Below, in pieces: positions 12,001 through 18,000 of a DNA stretch of 18,337 nucleotides; position 1 is the first letter of the stretch, and every line of letters begins with the position of its first letter. This DNA is from Thermovirgaceae bacterium (GTDB lineage Bacteria > Synergistota > Synergistia > Synergistales > Thermovirgaceae). The stretch spans positions 1 to 18,337 of the forward strand of contig JBKHBH010000036.1 of assembly GCA_046542505.1 (NCBI GenBank). The letters are read 5' to 3'. The position numbers are program-made.

Positions 12001-15000
12001 GCCCCACGTCAGTGATGTGATCAGGTGATGTCCCTTGAAGGCTATGATCAAAACCAGAGCGAAGGGGACCAGAAGAACGAGTCCCTCAGGTTGTCCGAGA
12101 GCGCCCACGTCGACTGCCGCCTGCTGTGTTTCACCGCCTCCCCCGAAGAGCATGAAGGCGATTATCGCCGGAATGGCGGCTGCGATGGCATAGCGGAAAC
12201 GGGATTTGACGACGCCAATGATGTCCGTTTCCTGGGTGACCGCCGAAACGATGGTGGTGTCCGATACGGGGGCCAGGTTGTCGCCGAAGGCCGCACCGCT
12301 GAGGATCGCTCCGAGGAGAACGACGGGATGGCTTCCCATGGCGACTCCCGCCGGATACATGAGCATGCAGAATGCCACGGTGGTCCCGTACCCGGTTCCG
12401 ACGGCCGTTGCAAAGAGCGCCGACAGAAGGAAGGTCACAACGGTGAACATGGCTCCCTGCACACCGGTCCGAAACCCTATCCAGACAAGCCCCTCAACGA
12501 GGCCGCCTGCCTGGAGAACCGAAGCGAACATGCCCGCCCAGAACCAGGCGACGATAGCGACAACACCGACGGTCTGCGTCATGCCTTCGAAAATCCCCTG
12601 GGCATAATCTTTCCACGGGGAGAGGCACAGGAACATGCCGATGGCAAGACCCAGTACGCCGCCCATGATAAGGCCCTGTTCGGTCACGATGTCCAGGACG
12701 CTGAGCGTAACAGCCCAAATCATGAAAAAGAGCATCGGGACAGCCGCCCCGAAATGACCCAGGCGGAAGTCAAGATGCGTTACCGTGTTTCCGTTGTTCT
12801 GGTTCCCTCCCTGGCTTTTGCTCGGTGCGTCCGTGTTTTGTCTCTTTTCTGGAGACATCGTCCCACCTCCTTTATTTTTTCCCCATACGCCAGGCTCCCG
12901 AATAGCACCCAGGCCGGTCGGCAGCATCGTACAGGGTTATGGGAATAAATGAAATGGAAGACGGTGCGCCTGATACGGCACAAGCGTCTCCGTCGTCGCA
13001 GCGAGCGTGATTGCAAGGGTTTTGCCGGAAGGTTTTGGTGTTGTTGGGTGTTTGCAGGTTGATTTTTCTTTTGTACGGCAGATCGAAGTCAGCAAGATTT
13101 GTAAACTATTTTGTTGCCAAGTTTCCTTATAATGATATCAAGGGTTCTGGCGGCAGACAAGGCAAAATAGACGCTGATCATTTCTCGGGAGTTTTTGTGC
13201 AGGAGGGCTTATGGCAGAGAAAAAATTTTATCCGTGGCAGCTCAATGCTTTTGACAGCCTTCGAGGCAGGGATGGTGTTCTCGCGGCCCCCACAGGGTCC
13301 GGGAAGACCTGGGTCGCCTACTTGTGGGCGGGACTTTTGGACCTTGACGGAAATGTGATTCACCCAGGCGGACGGCGGATCATTTTTACGGCGCCGATCA
13401 AGGCCCTGAGCAACGAACGTTATCTGGACCTCAGGAAAATGGGTCTTGACGTCGGTATTGAAACGGGAGATTTCAAGAAAAACGAAGAAGCGCCGATCAT
13501 TTGCTGTACCCAGGAGATCTACACCTTGAAATATGCGGGAAGGCCTAACCTCTCGGTCATTGTGGACGAGTTCCACTACATCTTCGGTGATCCCGAGCGG
13601 GCCAGAACGTACATCGAGGGGCTCAGAGACACGCACCCGGAATCCCGGCTGCTCGTCATGTCGGCCACCTTCGGGGGGACCCGTGACGTGGGAAGGTACC
13701 TCGCACGGGTTACCGGCCGCGATTTCAGCGTTTACGAAGGCAAGGAACGCGTGACCGATCTTGTTTTCCTCCCCAGAAGACCCTTCAGGCTGGAAGGGAT
13801 TCACGATGCCCTTGTTTTTGTGTTTTCCCAGAAAGGTGCCGTCGACCTCGCCTACAAGGCCGCAAGAAAGAGAAAAAGACGCGGCCGGTCTTTCAGAAAA
13901 CGACTTTATGACCTGGCAGACATTCTTGACGTCCCCAAGGTGCATATGCCGCTCTTGCGCGGGGTGGGAGTCTATCACGGCGGCATGCTTCCGAAGGAAA
14001 AGCTGCTCGTGGAGGCGGCCTTCAGGGAAAGGATCCTGGACGTTGTGGTTGGGACAAACGCCCTGGCGCTTGGGGTGAACCTGCCGGCGGAATACGCTGT
14101 TTTCGCGCAGCTTGTCAGGTACCATGACAGGGAGCCCATTTCGAAGAACGATTTTCTCCAGATGGCGGGACGTGCGGGGAGGAAGGGCCTTTTCGACACG
14201 GGCTACGTGACGTGGCTCAAGGATTCCCCCTACGAACAGCGCAAGGCGAACACGGGGGCGGTTTTCAAAAAACTGGTCAAGGCGCCCCCGGAAAGGGCCT
14301 TCGTCAATCTCCAGCCCGATTACGGAAAACTCCTAAAAAAACAGAGAACAGTCGCTGATGAAGCGAAATTCATCGCGGAATATTCGCTTCCTCCGATGGA
14401 TGTCTCGATTGTTGAATCGGAATTGCGTCGGGGACTCAAATATATTGACCGGTCGGTGAAGGACATGGTCTCCTCGGGTGAGCGAGAGCGATTCAAATCG
14501 GTGCTTGCAGATATCTGGTACGGAGAAATGGAGATAGGTGAGAACCTTGAAATGGCGCAGCTGTTTTATTGGGACGGCAAGGCGGATGCCCTTACGGCAG
14601 CGCAGGTCATAAATCTCTTCGAGAAAAATTATCTGAAGGCGCTCCTCAAGGTCAAGCGCTTTGCCAATCATCTTCCCCGAGGATATGAAATAGTCGGGAT
14701 GCACTATCTGGATCGCACAGTGGAGGAAATCGATGGGACGATTTACGGTTTCGAGGAAAAGATTCGAGAAATCGAATGGAGTGGAGCCGCTGGAAGTGGG
14801 CCGGAATAAAACAGGCGGCGGCAGAATGGAGCTGCCGTCGCCTGCGGTGGGTCAGATCAGGACCCGGATTGTGTTAACTGTCGTTTCGTGCTGCAGATGC
14901 TGTGCGTACGCCCCAGAATTCGGCGTCGAGGCTTCCTGAGTAAGCGCGAAAATCTTCTCCGGGGTCTTTCATCTTGACGTAGAGTTCCGGAGAGCCCTCT

Positions 15001-18000
15001 TTCGGAATGGCGATAATCCATGTGGCCACAGTCCGGGATTTCCGCGAGTCGCTTCCGGTTCTGAAAACGCTGTTGTCGGTGCCGGCGTTTCGGTCTTCGC
15101 TGAATGTGACGAAATCTTCCATTGCGAGTTGTCCCTGCCGGTCCGAGAGAAGACTCGTTATCCGCTCGTAGCGGGTTTTGCTGCTTTTCGAAGCGCGGTC
15201 GTTGAACCACTTGAGCTCGGAAGAAACGTAGTGGTTCGTCTGGGCGAGGAACCCGTTGTCGATGACCCTGACGGCCGTCTTGCCGTCGGGCGCCCCTTCG
15301 AAGACGGCAACCTTCCGGGCGTCGGCAACCATATAATACGATGAGCGGGTGAACCGGTCTTTCTGGGCGATAACTTCGTCAACGGTGGCGTAGGATGTGA
15401 GAATTTCGTTGGACGAAATAGGATCTCCGCCGTCAGCGCTTCGATCGTTTTTCGGGATGACCGAAGCAGTAGCCGTAACGACGGCCAGACCCTTTTCGTT
15501 GATTCCGCCCTTGAGCCCGGGGCTGTCTCCATCAAAGGCAAAAAGCCCAAGATATGAATATCCCTCACGAGACCTGACCTGCTGCAGGGCATGGCTTTGC
15601 CCCGGTTTCCAGTCCCTGTTTTTGGCCAGGATGGTGTATCCTTCGGCTGTCCCGGAACCCGTTGCCGCCCACAATGTGCAGGCTTCGATGGGCGCGGCCC
15701 ACATGAGGAAGACAAAAAGAAGGATGGCCGCAAGGACTCTTTTTGCTCCGATACGTTCAATAAGTTTTCTTCTGACTGGCTTCATGATTCTGACGCTCCT
15801 GTTTTTCGAAACGGGACGCGTCCGGGTCTTTCGCAAACCTGCTGCCTCTGGAATCTTTGGGGAATCTTCCTGGAAGGCGTGAAAAAGCCTTCGGGAATTT
15901 TCCCGAAGGCAAAGAAACGGTGCCTTCGGCAGCTCGGCGGTCATGGCCTTTTTCAGGCTTTAGACCCGTAGCTTTGCGTCATCGCCTTTCAGCGATTTTG
16001 CCGTTTCGGGCATATTTTTTCTTTCAAAGGTGCGCGGAAGGCGTTAAAAAAAACGGTGCCTTCCGGAATCTTCATCCGAAAGGCACCGTTTGGAAACATT
16101 TTAATCTTCGGTGGCCCGGCGATCATTGCCTTTTCAGGCTTTAGACCCGTAGCTTTGCGCCATCGCCTTTCGACGATTTTGCCCTTTCGGATGGTGATGC
16201 TGTACTTTACACTGCGAAACACTCTTGGTTGCTTACATACCTTACCATGTTTTTTGTCTTTGTCAAGATAGCTGGATGTAAGCAATTCTCGTGCTTTCCT
16301 CCCCCTTTCGCTGCCTGTACATGGGAAGGCCTTTGTCGCTATACTCCAGGTGTGATTCAAAATTCCAATGTCTATGGAGGCAACATCATGCAGCGTTTCT
16401 GGCTGAAAAAGACGCCGTTTTGTGTCGGAATCATTTTGGCTGCTCTTTTCATTCTGGCGGATTTTTCAAGTGGAGTTTCCTCAGCTTTTACGCCAGCCGA
16501 ATGGATAAAGACAGTTGGTCTTGATGTGGTCTTGACCCGGGAGGAAAAGGAAAGTCTTTTGGATTACGCGTCTTCGAAGCTGTCTTCCAAAGAAGCGACG
16601 GGAAGGTCCCTGAAAGGTCTCCCTTCTGATGACCAAAAGCGTGTTCTTTTCGTCAGTGCAAGCGACGGAAAAAGTCCTGCGGTTATTGGCATCGGAGAAG
16701 GAAACGGTTACCGGGAAGCCCTCGATGCAGCCATTTCGAAGCTGCCTAAAAAAACCGAAAACCCTTTGTGGATCAAGATCGACATAATCGACGGCTTGCA
16801 ATTCAGATGCAAGGAGCTGCTGACCGAACCGGTTGCGATACAAAAAGGTATCGAAGGAATCATTTTCCCAGGATGCCCTTCCTGTGTTTTTTTGCCTGAG
16901 ACGGTAGTGGTAAAAAAAATCATCGGTGAAGACGGTTTCCTGAGGGCGGAAAACTTTGTCAGCGAGGGTGGGCCTCAGGCGCGGGAATTCTTCAAGCACT
17001 TGCTGGATGTTCACTCGGCGGACCGATTGGATTTCCGGACGACTTCCTTCATAAAGGACGAGACCGGTTTTCGGGACGTGTCTCGAGGGAAGCAACAGGG
17101 AACTTTTTCTTCAGATGAATTGCTGGCGGCTTCCGGAAGCGCCGCGGGTTATCTCGCGAGGATGGTGGACGCGTCGGGTCGGTTTGTGTATCGATATGAT
17201 CCGCTCGAAGATAAAAAACTTGGAGGGTATAACATCCTGCGTCATGCCGGGACGCTTTTTTCCATGCTCGAATATTGCCAGATCGAAAAAGATAGCCGGA
17301 CGCTCGAATCGGCACGGCGAGCCTTGAGGTATCTTTTGGGGCAGATAGAGACAATACGGAGCAACGGGGTCGAAATGGCCTGCGTCGTAGAGGACGGCGA
17401 GGTCAAACTCGGTGGTAACGGGCTCGCAGCCCTTGCGATCGCCAAATACATCGAGGTGACAGGCGACAGGAAAAATCTTCCCGTTTTGCGGAAACTGTGT
17501 GAGTGGATGGTGCACGTCCAGGATTCGTCCGGGCGGTTTATTGTCCACAAACAGGATTTTCCCGATGGCCGGGTTTCTGATTTTCGGTCGTCCTATTATC
17601 CGGGCGAGGCGATTTTCGGCCTGATGAGAACCTTCGAAATCGATAGCGATGAGAGATGGCTCCAGGCGGCCGATGCGGCGGCAAGATACCTGATCACCGT
17701 TCGGGACAGGGGACTCCCCGATGTCCAGTTACCTCATGACCATTGGCTGCTCTATGGATTGAATGAGCTTTACCATCAGGAGAAGGGCCGGCTTTTCGCA
17801 AATCACGCATTCAGGATCGCGCGAGCCATCATTGGCGCACAAAACCAGAAGATGGCTTCAGTGGACTGGAATGGCGGATTCGGGTTCAACCCGCGTTCCA
17901 CACCGGCGGCGACACGTATGGAAGGAATGGGGGCGGCATACCGAATTGCCCTCGCAGTCAATGACGAAGAGATGAAAAAACGCATCCTCGAATCCCTTCG

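Follow-up and report, generated by a model that had tools for sequence, protein, structure and literature searches.

Introduction

Bacillus anthracis reportedly carries tandem TPP riboswitches, described by Welz and Breaker in 2007, in which two complete OFF switches act independently and give a steeper dose response. In Bacillus thuringiensis, Bc3-5 is a triple-tandem c-di-GMP-I riboswitch of the ON type, whose terminator shares sequence with the binding-site C, P1, and part of P3, and its tandem arrangement was shown to regulate more stringently and more digitally than a single riboswitch does (PMC4759541). A class I riboswitch also precedes ppep-1/zmpI (CD2830) of Clostridioides difficile, where PPEP-1 is made at low c-di-GMP and is a secreted zinc metalloprotease that removes two sortase-anchored adhesins (PMC11477304). 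This case sets a precedent, on the physiological side, for placing a "release or dispersal" enzyme under a c-di-GMP-I switch. Both the RNA class and the tandem c-di-GMP-I layout are already known.

The catalytic Cys of a classical C45 proenzyme is freed by autoproteolysis of a propeptide of ~100 residues. CV2077 of Chromobacterium violaceum (PDB 3GVZ) is annotated only as a peptidase C45 hydrolase domain protein, and its structure is unpublished (PMC12359130). Our genome survey had claimed that no C45/Ntn hydrolase is known as a c-di-GMP output. The consulted main-text passages of a published 2025 survey are silent on COG4927 ("predicted choloylglycine hydrolase"), but its Table S18 lists 1 of 880 COG4927 genes behind contiguous riboswitches, in a row that names neither organism nor riboswitch class, so that the claim of novelty stands only in part. 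Published discussion of the C45 family as a c-di-GMP riboswitch target was not found in the literature searched.

Here we analyze a stretch of 18,337 nucleotides from a Thermovirgaceae bacterium (hereafter, the window). On balance, we favor the explanation that complete riboswitches in series, with OFF logic, control an exported Cys-Ntn C45 product. New are the predicted switch direction, a conserved divergent neighbour (up596), and a small c-di-GMP-I regulon.

Results

Two complete c-di-GMP-I aptamers precede a C45 gene

Scanned with Rfam gathering cut-offs (35 bits for RF01051), the window gave two matches in all, both to c-di-GMP-I on the minus strand (Table 1). Each covers the full length of the model, which bears out the survey's finding of two complete tandem aptamers. 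In the Rfam alignment, aptamer 1 carries G at position 11 of the model, A at positions 38-39, and CC in its 3' tail, and no non-canonical pairs were flagged in the alignment of aptamer 2. The G, A, and C at the c-di-GMP-contact positions, whose roles we take to be those of G20, A47, and C92 in the Vc2 structures, are kept in both aptamers, and we infer from these sequences that both bind c-di-GMP. The 12 GGDEF matches and one EAL match in the window's genome imply that c-di-GMP is made there. Only one further c-di-GMP-I aptamer was found in these genomes, which implies a small regulon. Upstream of aptamer 1 in the window, we saw no convincing -10 box by eye, and a consensus scan of the region listed no minus-strand promoter there; loci of a second family have a TTGACA-17-TAAAAT/TATAAA-like pair at this place (by eye).

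Table 1. Features of the riboswitch-C45 locus in the window.
Feature	Coordinates	Strand	Basis
Possible -35 box TTGACA	16261..16266	-	~70 nt upstream of aptamer 1; tentative, by eye
Aptamer 1, c-di-GMP-I	16107..16193	-	RF01051, 82.6 bits, E 2.7e-15, model 1-87/87
Terminator 1	16043..16091	-	17-bp stem 16091-16051, 9 GC, then T run, tail TTTTTAACGC
Aptamer 2, c-di-GMP-I	15925..16012	-	RF01051, 87.5 bits, E 1.7e-16, model 1-87/87
Terminator 2	15881..15910	-	10-bp stem 15910-15887, 7 GC, loop 4, then TTTTTC
Shine-Dalgarno-like AGGAG	15796..15800	-	10 nt before ATG at 15785; read from sequence
C45 gene, 303 aa	14877..15785	-	Pfam AAT PF03417, NCBIfam NF040521
Predicted signal peptide, residues 1-35	15681..15785	-	Basic N-region, hydrophobic core, I-E-A before Cys36
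Predicted mature C45-family Cys-Ntn hydrolase, CV2077-like	14877..15680	-	Cys36 codon 15680-15678
Probable C45 terminator	14805..14845	-	Imperfect 13-bp stem + TTTTATT; tentative, by eye
up596, 596 aa	16391..18181	+	tblastn conservation; structure model

The C45 product is a predicted exported Cys-Ntn hydrolase

The C45 protein passes the curated cut-offs of both families that it matches, PF03417 (4e-24, 86 bits, cut-off 23.2) and NF040521 C45_proenzyme (2.3e-29, 102.8 bits, cut-off 85), the latter from profile position 85 of 313. The next downstream gene, for a helicase (13211-14809, +), is convergent, so that the C45 gene is monocistronic, as the survey had it. The consensus scan did not call the probable C45 terminator in the gap to the helicase gene, where the stem has one A.C mismatch. 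The ribosome-binding region of the C45 gene is also present in two related loci (L005 and L006).

The survey had based the C45 assignment on HMM matches of moderate score, and we find it stronger. The sequence matches CV2077 (3gvz_A) with E 1.9e-48, and a profile search gave 5.5e-65 for 3gvz compared to about 4e-4 for penicillin V acylases. The structure model (pLDDT 80.5) superimposes on 3gvz_A with TM 0.74/0.87 (the latter target-normalised), and the next folds are bile salt hydrolases, penicillin V acylases, and isopenicillin N acyltransferase. C36, N56, R57, D58, and N96 are among the residues invariant in 14 orthologs.

The predicted signal peptide ends directly before this invariant Cys (MKPV...APIEA, C36TLW), in agreement with the survey. 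The preceding residue is Ala in 13 of the 14 orthologs and Ser in one, position -3 is A, I, or L, and 12 of 14 read A-x-A, with I-E-A and L-E-A in the other two; by eye, none of the 14 fits the lipobox consensus [LVI][ASTVI][GAS]C. The model places a helix at residues 5-28 and a beta-strand from residue 36. This pattern suggests cleavage before Cys36 and export, and Cys36 would be the N-terminal nucleophile. By cutting exactly before Cys36, signal peptidase I would expose the nucleophile outside the cytoplasm, and removal of the signal peptide would replace the autoproteolytic step by which classical C45 enzymes shed their propeptide.

Each aptamer is followed by a terminator whose 5' arm can pair with P1

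Terminator 1 (-29.3 kcal/mol) starts 15 nt past aptamer 1, and terminator 2 (-18.4 kcal/mol) starts 14 nt past aptamer 2. Because each aptamer owns an expression platform, we regard the leader as two riboswitches and not as one riboswitch with two sensors. A terminator-like hairpin follows the first aptamer in 13/13 evaluable loci (L011, masked by N, was left out), with aptamer-terminator gaps of 14-28 nt and no overlap between terminators and aptamers. A consensus scan counted 4 terminators in the region compared to 3.8 ± 1.9 in shuffles, which is no excess, and the case for the terminators rests on position, stem length, and conservation. After the last aptamer, the finder called a terminator in 1 of 13 loci, that of the window. 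Among relatives, terminator 2 is shared by L005 only, where the U-tract of the similar hairpin is interrupted (by eye), and the last-aptamer units of the remaining loci have no terminator. In a bound-state mimic of terminator-less loci, predicted Shine-Dalgarno accessibility decreased in 4/13, was unchanged in 8, and increased in one (L010, whose start and Shine-Dalgarno sequence are doubtful).

The first 11 nt of aptamer 1 (16193-16183) form the 5' strand of P1, and the 5' arm of terminator 1 holds a perfect 11-nt complement of it, so that this strand has two possible partners, the proximal P1 3' strand or the terminator arm. The duplex of the arm with aptamer nt 1-22 has -21.7 kcal/mol compared to -13.7 ± 2.4 kcal/mol for shuffles. 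In switch 2, the 3' tail of the aptamer is complementary to the 5' arm of terminator 2. We computed minimum free energy folds of nascent transcripts cut after the terminator loop for 15 terminator-bearing units. Nine bases of the terminator arm paired with the aptamer 5' strand in switch 1, and eight paired with the 3' tail in switch 2; overall, the arm paired with a P1 strand in 14/15 units (5' strand, n=5; 3' tail, n=9), the exception being L013, where it paired with P3.

Covariation support consists of two events only, both seen by eye. In the window's family, the 11-nt complement ends in a C:G pair in 3 loci, exchanged for A:T in 2, and in the second family, one antiterminator pair of L019 changes from T:A to C:G. 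The changed arm base of L019 lies in the terminator loop, which implies that it serves the antiterminator only. In the second family, the complement of the arm (GCCGAAGG-like) recurs within hairpins P2 and P3 of the aptamer, so that energy alone leaves the partner ambiguous.

The layout predicts two OFF switches in series

These pairings make two OFF switches in series the probable arrangement. At low c-di-GMP, the free P1 strand (5' strand in switch 1, 3' tail in switch 2) would pair with the emerging 5' arm of the terminator as an antiterminator, and polymerase would read through both terminators into the C45 gene. At high c-di-GMP, the ligand would hold P1 and the junction nucleotides in place, the hairpins of both terminators would then form, and transcription would be stopped twice. 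In full-length transcripts of 14/15 units, the terminator state is 3-15 kcal/mol more stable than the best fold that lacks the terminator, so that antitermination would have to be kinetic, and a folding model cannot show that it suffices. For switch 2, the predicted logic covers the closest kin of the window, as the platform elsewhere is not uniform.

The opposite logic, in which c-di-GMP binding prevents termination and the amidase is a high-c-di-GMP (sessile/biofilm) enzyme, appears unlikely to us. It would agree with Bc3-5, the sole characterised tandem c-di-GMP-I riboswitch, which is ON (PMC4759541). The ligand-free preference for the terminator is also as for an ON default state, and in the window's family, the helix of 5' strand and arm encloses the aptamer and could be imagined as a distal replacement of P1. 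However, the Bc3-5 terminator is built from binding-site C, P1, and P3 nucleotides, which is not so here, and with the gaps and lack of overlap described above, a bound aptamer cannot sequester parts of the terminators. Moreover, the complementary segments reach the ligand junction (either the 5' segment as far as model position 11, a G, or the tail that carries the CC), and their pairing would be incompatible with a formed ligand pocket, given the contact roles that we assume.

With OFF logic, the riboswitch layout suggests that the enzyme is produced at low c-di-GMP only, which would make it an enzyme of the low-c-di-GMP state and not of sessile-state remodelling in general. Since polymerase must escape two ligand-dependent terminators, rising c-di-GMP would reduce expression more steeply and to a lower minimum. 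The digital switch that the survey proposed is in this respect supported by analogy with the Bc3-5 tandem (PMC4759541).

Tandem units are conserved with the C45 gene

Among 261 genomes of the order, the window's included, 19 have C45 homologs at E<=1e-10, 18 of these at E<=1e-45. In 12 of the 18 other loci, Rfam placed a pair of aptamers upstream of the gene on its own strand, and in one (L014) it placed three, so that the conservation in two Synergistales families that the survey reported extends to 13/18 loci, in three genera. Rfam found no aptamer in the other five: L007, where the contig stops at the C45 gene; L008, where the gene is 5'-truncated; L020 and L021, which are of another family; and L022, a classical proenzyme of 28% identity. 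Nor did any of 67 homologous loci of other phyla have a c-di-GMP aptamer. The "GGC variant" aptamers that the survey had noted (its locus L214) are ordinary c-di-GMP-I aptamers that score 90.7 bits with RF01051, and the variant label is spurious, a product of clan competition in Rfam.

Could only one unit be functional, the tandem being a neutral by-product of a duplication-prone repeat that does not sharpen the response? The aptamers cluster by genus and not by position, L014 has a perfect duplicate of a ~141-nt unit, and the two aptamers of L013 are each other's closest relatives, which together imply ongoing duplication or gene conversion; the platform of the last unit also varies between lineages. 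By contrast, all aptamers of every locus score at least 73 bits, except one in L011 that a masked stretch truncates, the contact nucleotides are kept in all of them, and at least two units are present in 13/13 aptamer-bearing loci of the three genera and two families, with no single-aptamer locus. In addition, the neighbour and every aptamer have been lost from G252, a complete genome within the same genus, where what is left of the aptamers is a relic joined to the C45 gene at codon ~83; all parts of the module have decayed together. We therefore consider a by-product very improbable and retain two functional switches in series.

The divergent neighbour up596 and the role of the enzyme

By tblastn, an up596 homolog lies beside 13/13 riboswitch-bearing loci, and none was matched beside aptamer-less loci. 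The C45 gene, the riboswitches, and this neighbour behave as one module. Transcribed from the opposite strand and away from the riboswitches, up596 is not under their control. The window's up596 matched no Pfam or NCBIfam family; of 32 homologs, 17 weakly match GH127 and 13 match Pectate_lyase_2. Its model (pLDDT 90) combines an N-terminal helix, which would be a signal or an anchor, with an alpha/beta domain and, at the C-terminus, an (alpha/alpha)6 barrel; cellobiose 2-epimerase/YihS, GH76 mannanase, and GH88 are the best PDB folds (E 3e-9 to 1e-7, target-normalised TM 0.56-0.72). As modelled, up596 is an exported carbohydrate-active-like protein.

Most speculatively, when c-di-GMP is low and cells are planktonic or dispersing, the C45 enzyme, possibly together with the barrel protein up596, may cleave an acyl-amide on a compound of the envelope or the extracellular space. 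A possible but less probable role under the same regulation is that of a scavenging or signal-degrading acylase, which would act on a small diffusible N-acyl amide instead of remodelling the envelope or matrix of its own cell; acyl-homoserine lactones, N-acyl amino acids, or peptides (food of an amino-acid fermenter) would be candidate substrates. Next to CV2077, the closest folds are all those of enzymes that act on small acyl-amides, and long-chain acyl-homoserine lactones are substrates of some Gram-negative penicillin V acylases. Moreover, the family is a stand-alone gene across many phyla, where none of the 67 loci has a conserved neighbour that gives a clue to the substrate, and this fits a self-contained catabolic or quenching enzyme. 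In the riboswitch lineages, however, the gene is always paired with the modelled (alpha/alpha)6 protein, and this constant pairing hints at a glycan-linked substrate.

Discussion

The closest solved relative of the C45 protein is CV2077, with which it shares an ...A, CTLW(G/A)A(A/T)G junction after an N-terminal leader (..VDA, CTLWGAAG in CV2077). No c-di-GMP aptamer was found in four Chromobacterium loci (L054, L057, L097, and L098). Isopenicillin N acyltransferase (2X1C/2X1D/2X1E) and the C59 enzymes (choloylglycine hydrolases/penicillin V acylases) have the alpha-beta-beta-alpha Ntn fold and N-terminal Cys nucleophile that the model predicts here, and a GxNEKGL-type motif aligns with penicillin V acylase, but identity to classical C45 and C59 enzymes is only 13-18%. 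Unlike in the classical C45 proenzyme, a predicted signal peptide stands in place of the propeptide.

As in the B. anthracis TPP tandem, two complete riboswitches for the same ligand stand in series, although OFF logic is only predicted here; that tandem serves a coenzyme feedback loop, whereas this one would serve a second-messenger output. With ppep-1, the locus shares a c-di-GMP-I riboswitch ahead of a hydrolase, and both secretion of the hydrolase and its production at low c-di-GMP are observed there and predicted here. It differs in having tandem riboswitches and a Cys-Ntn amidohydrolase in place of a single riboswitch and a metalloprotease. In Bc3-5, several complete c-di-GMP-I units, each with its own terminator and acting independently, likewise share one 5' UTR. 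Bc3-5 lies in the cspABCDE mRNA of a member of the Bacillota and is ON with an overlapping terminator, whereas the Synergistota locus has stand-alone terminators, predicted OFF logic, and a putative secreted C45 hydrolase as its product.

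The C45 gene is preceded by two complete c-di-GMP-I aptamers

An Rfam scan of the whole 18,337-nt window at the gathering threshold returned exactly two matches, both to RF01051 (c-di-GMP-I, also called GEMM-I) and both directed toward the C45 gene. The survey's finding had described these as two complete aptamers in tandem, and we agree, as each match spans the full length of the model with a score far above the gathering score of 35 (see table). The GNRA-capped first hairpin and the second hairpin are intact in the Rfam alignments of both aptamers, and the only non-canonical pair flagged lies in the upstream aptamer 1. 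Both aptamers have G at model position 11, AA at positions 38-39, and CC in the 3' tail; the position-11 G, A38-39, and the tail C are likewise present in 27 of 27 aligned aptamers from relatives. We take these positions to be the ligand contacts G20, A47, and C92 of the Vc2 crystal structures. A G rather than an A at position 20 of Vc2 selects c-di-GMP rather than cGAMP, and the position-11 G thus argues for c-di-GMP rather than cGAMP as the likely ligand of the window aptamers.

The survey's finding had also listed aptamers of the GGC variant (RF03167) in a locus with three aptamers (its L214, here L014, from genome G009), a label that could signify a changed specificity. In our Rfam scan of 18 loci, four aptamers of relatives received this label. 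The two in L014 score 90.7 bits with RF01051, and in the alignment each of the four is nearly identical to aptamers that carry the RF01051 label in sister loci. These results speak against a changed specificity: the L014 aptamers are ordinary RF01051 members, and the RF03167 label is a product of E-value competition within the Rfam clan and no sign of a different ligand.

Positions and properties of predicted features in the window
Feature	Position	Strand	Description
Aptamer 1, c-di-GMP-I	16193-16107	minus	RF01051, 82.6 bits, model 1-87 of 87
Terminator 1	16091-16051	minus	17-bp stem and T-run, 15 nt 3' of aptamer 1
Unit 1	16193-16043	minus	aptamer plus platform
Aptamer 2, c-di-GMP-I	16012-15925	minus	RF01051, 87.5 bits, model 1-87 of 87
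Terminator 2	15910-15887	minus	10-bp stem and TTTTTC, 14 nt 3' of aptamer 2
Unit 2	16012-15881	minus	aptamer plus platform
C45 gene	15785-14877	minus	303 codons from the first ATG past aptamer 2; AGGAG 10 nt upstream
Putative C45-gene terminator	14845-14805	minus	imperfect 13-bp stem and TTTTATT, by eye; absent from consensus scan
Terminator site	14848-14866	plus	called by consensus scan
Hel308-like helicase gene	13211-14809	plus	convergent with the C45 gene
Divergent neighbour gene	16391-18181	plus	596 aa
Diaminopimelate-epimerase-family paralog	6612-7508	minus	PF01678, 3.3e-43
Diaminopimelate-epimerase-family paralog	7525-8370	minus	PF01678, 8.8e-39
EamA transporter gene	5698-6615		adjoins the PF01678 paralogs
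318-aa ORF	8467-9423		no Pfam family; adjoins the PF01678 paralogs

The C45 gene encodes a candidate exported Cys-Ntn hydrolase

The product of the C45 gene matches Pfam AAT (PF03417; 4e-24, 86 bits against a cut-off of 23.2) and NCBIfam C45_proenzyme (NF040521; 2.3e-29, 102.8 bits against a cut-off of 85), the latter over profile positions 85-307 of 313 only, and both scores bear out the family assignment proposed in the survey's finding. The closest solved protein is the uncharacterised CV2077 of Chromobacterium violaceum (3GVZ), which was matched at E 1.9e-48 by the single sequence and at 5.5e-65 by a 14-sequence profile, with penicillin V acylases next at about 4e-4. An AlphaFold model based on 14 orthologs (pLDDT 80.5) has a helix at residues 5-28 and a first core strand at residues 36-42 that begins at Cys36, the presumed nucleophile. 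This model resembles 3gvz_A most closely among PDB entries (E 1.9e-21, TM 0.74/0.87), followed by bile salt hydrolases, penicillin V acylases, and isopenicillin N acyltransferase (2x1c). The predicted structure points to an alpha-beta-beta-alpha Ntn fold with Cys36 as the first residue of a beta-strand.

C36, NRD, GxNEKGL, and other motifs are invariant in the 14 orthologs. Position -1 relative to the Cys is occupied by Ala in 13 of the 14 and by Ser in one, and position -3 is A, I, or L, which we take to be a site of the signal peptidase I type. In all 14 orthologs, such an A-x-A-type site in the predicted signal peptide directly precedes the invariant Cys, just where the signal peptide had been said to end. 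A lipoprotein Cys was considered and rejected, because by eye none of the 14 orthologs fits the lipobox pattern, and an acylated N terminus would presumably block an Ntn nucleophile. The hallmark of C45_proenzyme, a propeptide that is self-cleaved at Gly-Cys, was not found here: residues 1-35 make up the signal peptide and not a propeptide domain, and position -1 is never Gly, unlike the classical proenzyme junction. We read this arrangement as a Cys nucleophile that would be freed by export, and not by autoproteolysis as in classical C45 proenzymes.

The gene had been called monocistronic, and this description stands, since the gene downstream of it, which encodes a Hel308-like helicase, is convergent. 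The convergent gap at 14805-14866 contains hairpins on both strands, which may together terminate transcription in both directions, in a region overlapping the stop codon of the helicase gene.

The tandem riboswitches likely act as OFF switches

The leader consists of two aptamer-plus-platform units on the strand of the gene, and no convincing ORF was found on the minus strand between them. Each aptamer is followed by a stand-alone hairpin with a U-tract. Terminator-like sites are no more frequent in this region than expected by chance (4 compared to 3.8 in shuffled sequences), and the weight of the case for terminators lies in their placement and conservation, not in the raw count. All 13 evaluable loci have a terminator-like hairpin 14-28 nt downstream of the first aptamer.

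In the window's family, the first 11 nt of the aptamer, which comprise the P1 5' strand and the junction up to the position-11 G, have a perfect 11-nt complement in the 5' arm of terminator 1. By eye, the terminal pair of this helix is C:G in three loci and A:T in two. In the second family and in unit 2 of the window, the arm is complementary to the 3' tail of the aptamer, including the ligand-contacting C. A T:A pair of this arm/tail helix is replaced by C:G in L019 (also by eye), where the arm base sits in the terminator loop, which implies that the change serves the alternative helix only. These two events make up all of the covariation behind the antiterminator. When nascent transcripts were folded with the sequence cut after the terminator loop, the arm paired with a P1 strand in 14 of 15 units (the 5' strand in 5 and the tail in 9); in the exception, L013, it paired with the P3 hairpin. 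Together, the presence of a terminator behind each aptamer, the P1/arm complementarity in 14 of 15 units, and the two compensatory changes suggest that the fold of the platform is linked to that of the aptamer.

The direction of the switch follows from which nucleotides are shared. Because the arm pairings occupy nucleotides of P1 and the ligand pocket, and because the terminators have no nucleotide in common with the aptamers, binding of c-di-GMP would only free the arm for terminator formation. Thus, the tandem riboswitches are likely, though by no means certain, to be OFF switches in which c-di-GMP lowers expression. For 14 of 15 units, folding of the full transcript favours the terminator over the best alternative, with a margin of 3-15 kcal/mol, so that read-through would hinge on kinetics. 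In the second family, the complement of the arm is also present in the P2 and P3 hairpins.

The last unit varies, and the tandem state is maintained

A terminator after the last aptamer was called in the window only. Its nearest relative, L005, retains the terminator 2 hairpin with an interrupted U-tract, and L006 has a degenerate form of the hairpin; no terminator was found behind the last aptamer in the other ten loci. The leaders of the second family end with a conserved CCUUCCCC...GCCCCC...GGGGGA-ATG. For this family, RNAalifold predicts a helix between the P3 3' strand plus tail of the aptamer and a GCCUUC...CCCGCGC segment, and beside it a GCCCCC:GGGGG hairpin over the Shine-Dalgarno (SD) sequence. 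When the bound state was mimicked by blocking the aptamer, predicted SD accessibility was lowered in 4 of 13 loci, unchanged in 8, and raised in 1 (L010, whose start codon and SD are doubtful). Outside the close kin of the window, the last unit is probably translational or Rho-dependent, with a weak lean toward the OFF direction.

No riboswitch-bearing locus has a single aptamer. All 13 loci, which come from three genera, retain two or more intact units, and this retention argues that the series arrangement is under selection. In an alignment of 27 aptamers, the sequences cluster by genus rather than by position, and positional orthology of aptamers 1 and 2 across genera is therefore unsupported; 87 nt are too short to separate a single ancient duplication followed by conversion from repeated duplication. 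The three aptamers of L014 lie at L014:1029-1396 (equivalent to L104:14529-14896), where units 2 and 3 are perfect duplicates of ≈141 nt, identical including linkers and terminators. This identity implies a very recent tandem duplication and, together with the grouping by genus, that duplication or conversion is ongoing.

The riboswitch arrangement is confined to two Synergistales families

We searched 261 genomes of the order with the C45 protein and found a homolog at E≤1e-10 in 19, counting the window's own genome. Homologs are present in 6 of the 18 other genomes of the window's family, in all nine genomes of the second family, in 2 of 79 of the third, and in 1 of 23 of the fourth, the last being a weak match of 28% identity. 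Rfam scans of the 18 other loci gave 27 matches to the c-di-GMP clan, every one of them upstream and on the strand of the gene, with two aptamers in 12 loci and three in L014. The search, redone here, therefore recovers the pattern noted previously, that of two (once three) aptamers before orthologs from two Synergistales families, in 13 of 18 other loci. The first aptamer of L011 is interrupted by a masked run of N. Among the loci that have no aptamer, the contig of L007 ends 12 nt past the gene, the gene of L008 lacks its first ≈80 codons, and L022 encodes a classical proenzyme. L020 and L021, both from the third family, have the junction of signal peptide and Cys; upstream, they have either tRNA genes or nothing. 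In G200, a third-family genome, the place that riboswitches occupy in the other families is taken by three tRNA genes (L020:2401-2650, minus strand), directly before the riboswitch-less C45 homolog.

A scan of one genome per species gave 119 relatives among 175 candidate stretches, and the best 80 of these 119 were used. Thirteen were the Synergistales loci again and 67 came from other phyla, including Vulcanimicrobiota, Desulfobacterota and relatives, Nitrospirota, Verrucomicrobiota, Lentisphaerae, Negativicutes, Chromobacterium, Deefgea, and others. Rfam scans at the gathering threshold found no aptamer of the c-di-GMP clan in any of the 67 loci, of which L044, L072, and L079, with <200 nt of upstream sequence, are too short to judge; the sole RNA matches were a tRNA-Sec (L050) and a downstream cobalamin riboswitch (L095). 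Clustering of ORFs in the 1.5-kb flanks of the same loci found no conserved neighbours of the C45 family. Judged from this distribution, the C45 enzyme family is old and widespread, and the absence of aptamers from the 67 loci implies that its capture by the riboswitches was lineage-specific to the two Synergistales families.

The C45 gene holds most class I aptamers of its genome

We found 12 matches to GGDEF and one to EAL in the window's genome, which is 93.5% complete. A search of this genome found no class II c-di-GMP aptamers and only three of class I, two of which precede the C45 gene. The third (G000:C117:7350-7445, which is L003:1501-1596, minus strand; 79.4 bits) is followed by a hairpin with a T-run and then by a 161-aa ORF of no Pfam family (L003:876-1361, minus strand). 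A 167-aa ORF that is 27% identical to this product also stands behind a single c-di-GMP-I aptamer in genome G250, and in G009 and G005 of the second family the single extra aptamer precedes a gene for a 164-aa exported thioredoxin/redoxin-like protein. Class I aptamers number three each in G250 and G005, four in G009, which has the triple locus, and none in G252 or in G200 with its riboswitch-less C45 gene.

G252, a single-contig genome (99% complete) from the window's genus, lacks the divergent neighbour gene and has a truncated C45 gene fused to the relic of an aptamer. At L008:1430-1520 (G252:C1, about 1953530-1953620), an aptamer fragment, in which a portion of the first hairpin is fused to the 3' portion of an aptamer, runs straight into approximately codon 83 of the C45 gene. 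From its sequence, this stretch is a deletion scar.

A divergent neighbour accompanies the riboswitch-C45 unit

The gene for the 596-aa neighbour adjoins the riboswitch-C45 unit wherever the riboswitches are present (13 of 13 loci), and was not found at the remaining fetched loci (1.5-kb flanks). It is transcribed away from the riboswitches and therefore lies outside their control. No Pfam or NCBIfam family was found for the window's own protein, and it has hundreds of homologs annotated as 'hypothetical' (285 at E≤1e-5). Among 32 homologs scanned, 17 gave weak matches to GH127 and 13 matched Pectate_lyase_2, and the leads of an atlas search were AMMECR1, GH127, and C5-epimerase. The structural model (pLDDT 90) comprises an N-terminal helix, an alpha/beta domain, and an (alpha/alpha)6 barrel whose best PDB matches are cellobiose 2-epimerase/YihS, GH76 mannanases, and GH88. 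The family is large, with P0031, P0094, and P0069 noted among its members. PGA_cap (PF09587) or ATP-grasp (PF14397/PF14398) domains occur in a few homologs of greater length, and one source names a homolog 'AMMECR1 domain-containing'.

The 18-19 kb contexts of three relatives share nothing beyond the C45-neighbour pair, and the helicase gene is additionally common to contexts within the window's family. Elsewhere in the window, two adjacent paralogs of the diaminopimelate-epimerase family adjoin genes for an EamA transporter and a 318-aa protein.

Possible role of the C45 amidase and comparison with known systems

c-di-GMP riboswitches mark genes that are switched between motile and attached life, and here they occur twice, at the gene of a predicted exported Cys-Ntn amidase. 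The predicted layout fits a double OFF gate, which would restrict an exported acyl-amide hydrolase to conditions of low c-di-GMP. The closest physiological precedent is PPEP-1 of Clostridioides difficile, a secreted protease behind a class I riboswitch that is made at low c-di-GMP and strips surface adhesins (PMC11477304). The analogy to PPEP-1 and the carbohydrate-active-like partner make it attractive to suppose that the amidase takes down a component of the matrix or envelope. This role is no better supported than one in which the amidase degrades a diffusible N-acyl amide. Going further along the matrix or envelope line, the amidase and the neighbour, if likewise exported, could form a dispersal module that dismantles an acyl- or peptide-decorated extracellular glycan of the cell's own matrix or envelope, with the amidase acting at low c-di-GMP only; we consider this full model improbable, and offer it as a speculation. 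If true, it would assign a physiological role and a substrate class, for the first time, to the widespread, structurally solved but orphan family of CV2077-like secreted C45 proteins, and the C45 gene, with two of the three aptamers in the window's genome, would be the main riboswitch output of c-di-GMP in these Synergistales. Little work has been done on c-di-GMP signalling in this phylum, and our literature searches gave no paper on the subject. The riboswitch link itself would be an entry to the role of the family, as it would point to an acyl-amide that is cleaved outside the cell at low c-di-GMP only.

C45/Ntn hydrolases had been put forward in the survey's finding as a new c-di-GMP output. 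Our literature search found no paper that joins c-di-GMP-I riboswitches to C45 proteins; judged by title, none on c-di-GMP riboswitches and Ntn hydrolases was on topic, nor, judged by title or start of abstract, was any among the matches listed for c-di-GMP in this phylum or genus. A genome-wide survey of non-coding RNAs in Thermovirga lienii mentions, in its accessible text, only 'known riboswitches' (PMC6429828). The claim holds to this extent, with less novelty than proposed, since Table S18 of a 2025 riboswitch survey already lists COG4927 ('predicted choloylglycine hydrolase') with 1 of its 880 genes behind contiguous riboswitches and a p-value of 0.19, in a row that gives no organism or riboswitch class and that the accessible text of that survey does not discuss (PMC12452182). 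The same survey places c-di-GMP among three riboswitch families enriched in tandem, and finds tandem c-di-GMP riboswitches mainly in Thermodesulfobacteriota and Deinococcota (PMC12452182).

The aptamer class, tandem complete c-di-GMP-I riboswitches such as Bc3-5 of Bacillus thuringiensis, and secreted hydrolases as class I targets are already known, and the conserved target gene family and the predicted OFF-OFF layout are new. Bc3-5 is an ON switch whose terminator incorporates the binding-site C, P1, and some of P3, and it has a steeper, more digital response than a single unit (PMC4759541). By analogy, we infer a steeper dose response for the tandem leader of the window. The window leader appears to be of the opposite design to Bc3-5, with terminators separate from the aptamers and a predicted OFF direction, and would provide an OFF-OFF counterpart to the one characterised ON tandem that is useful for comparing switches in series in a second-messenger response.
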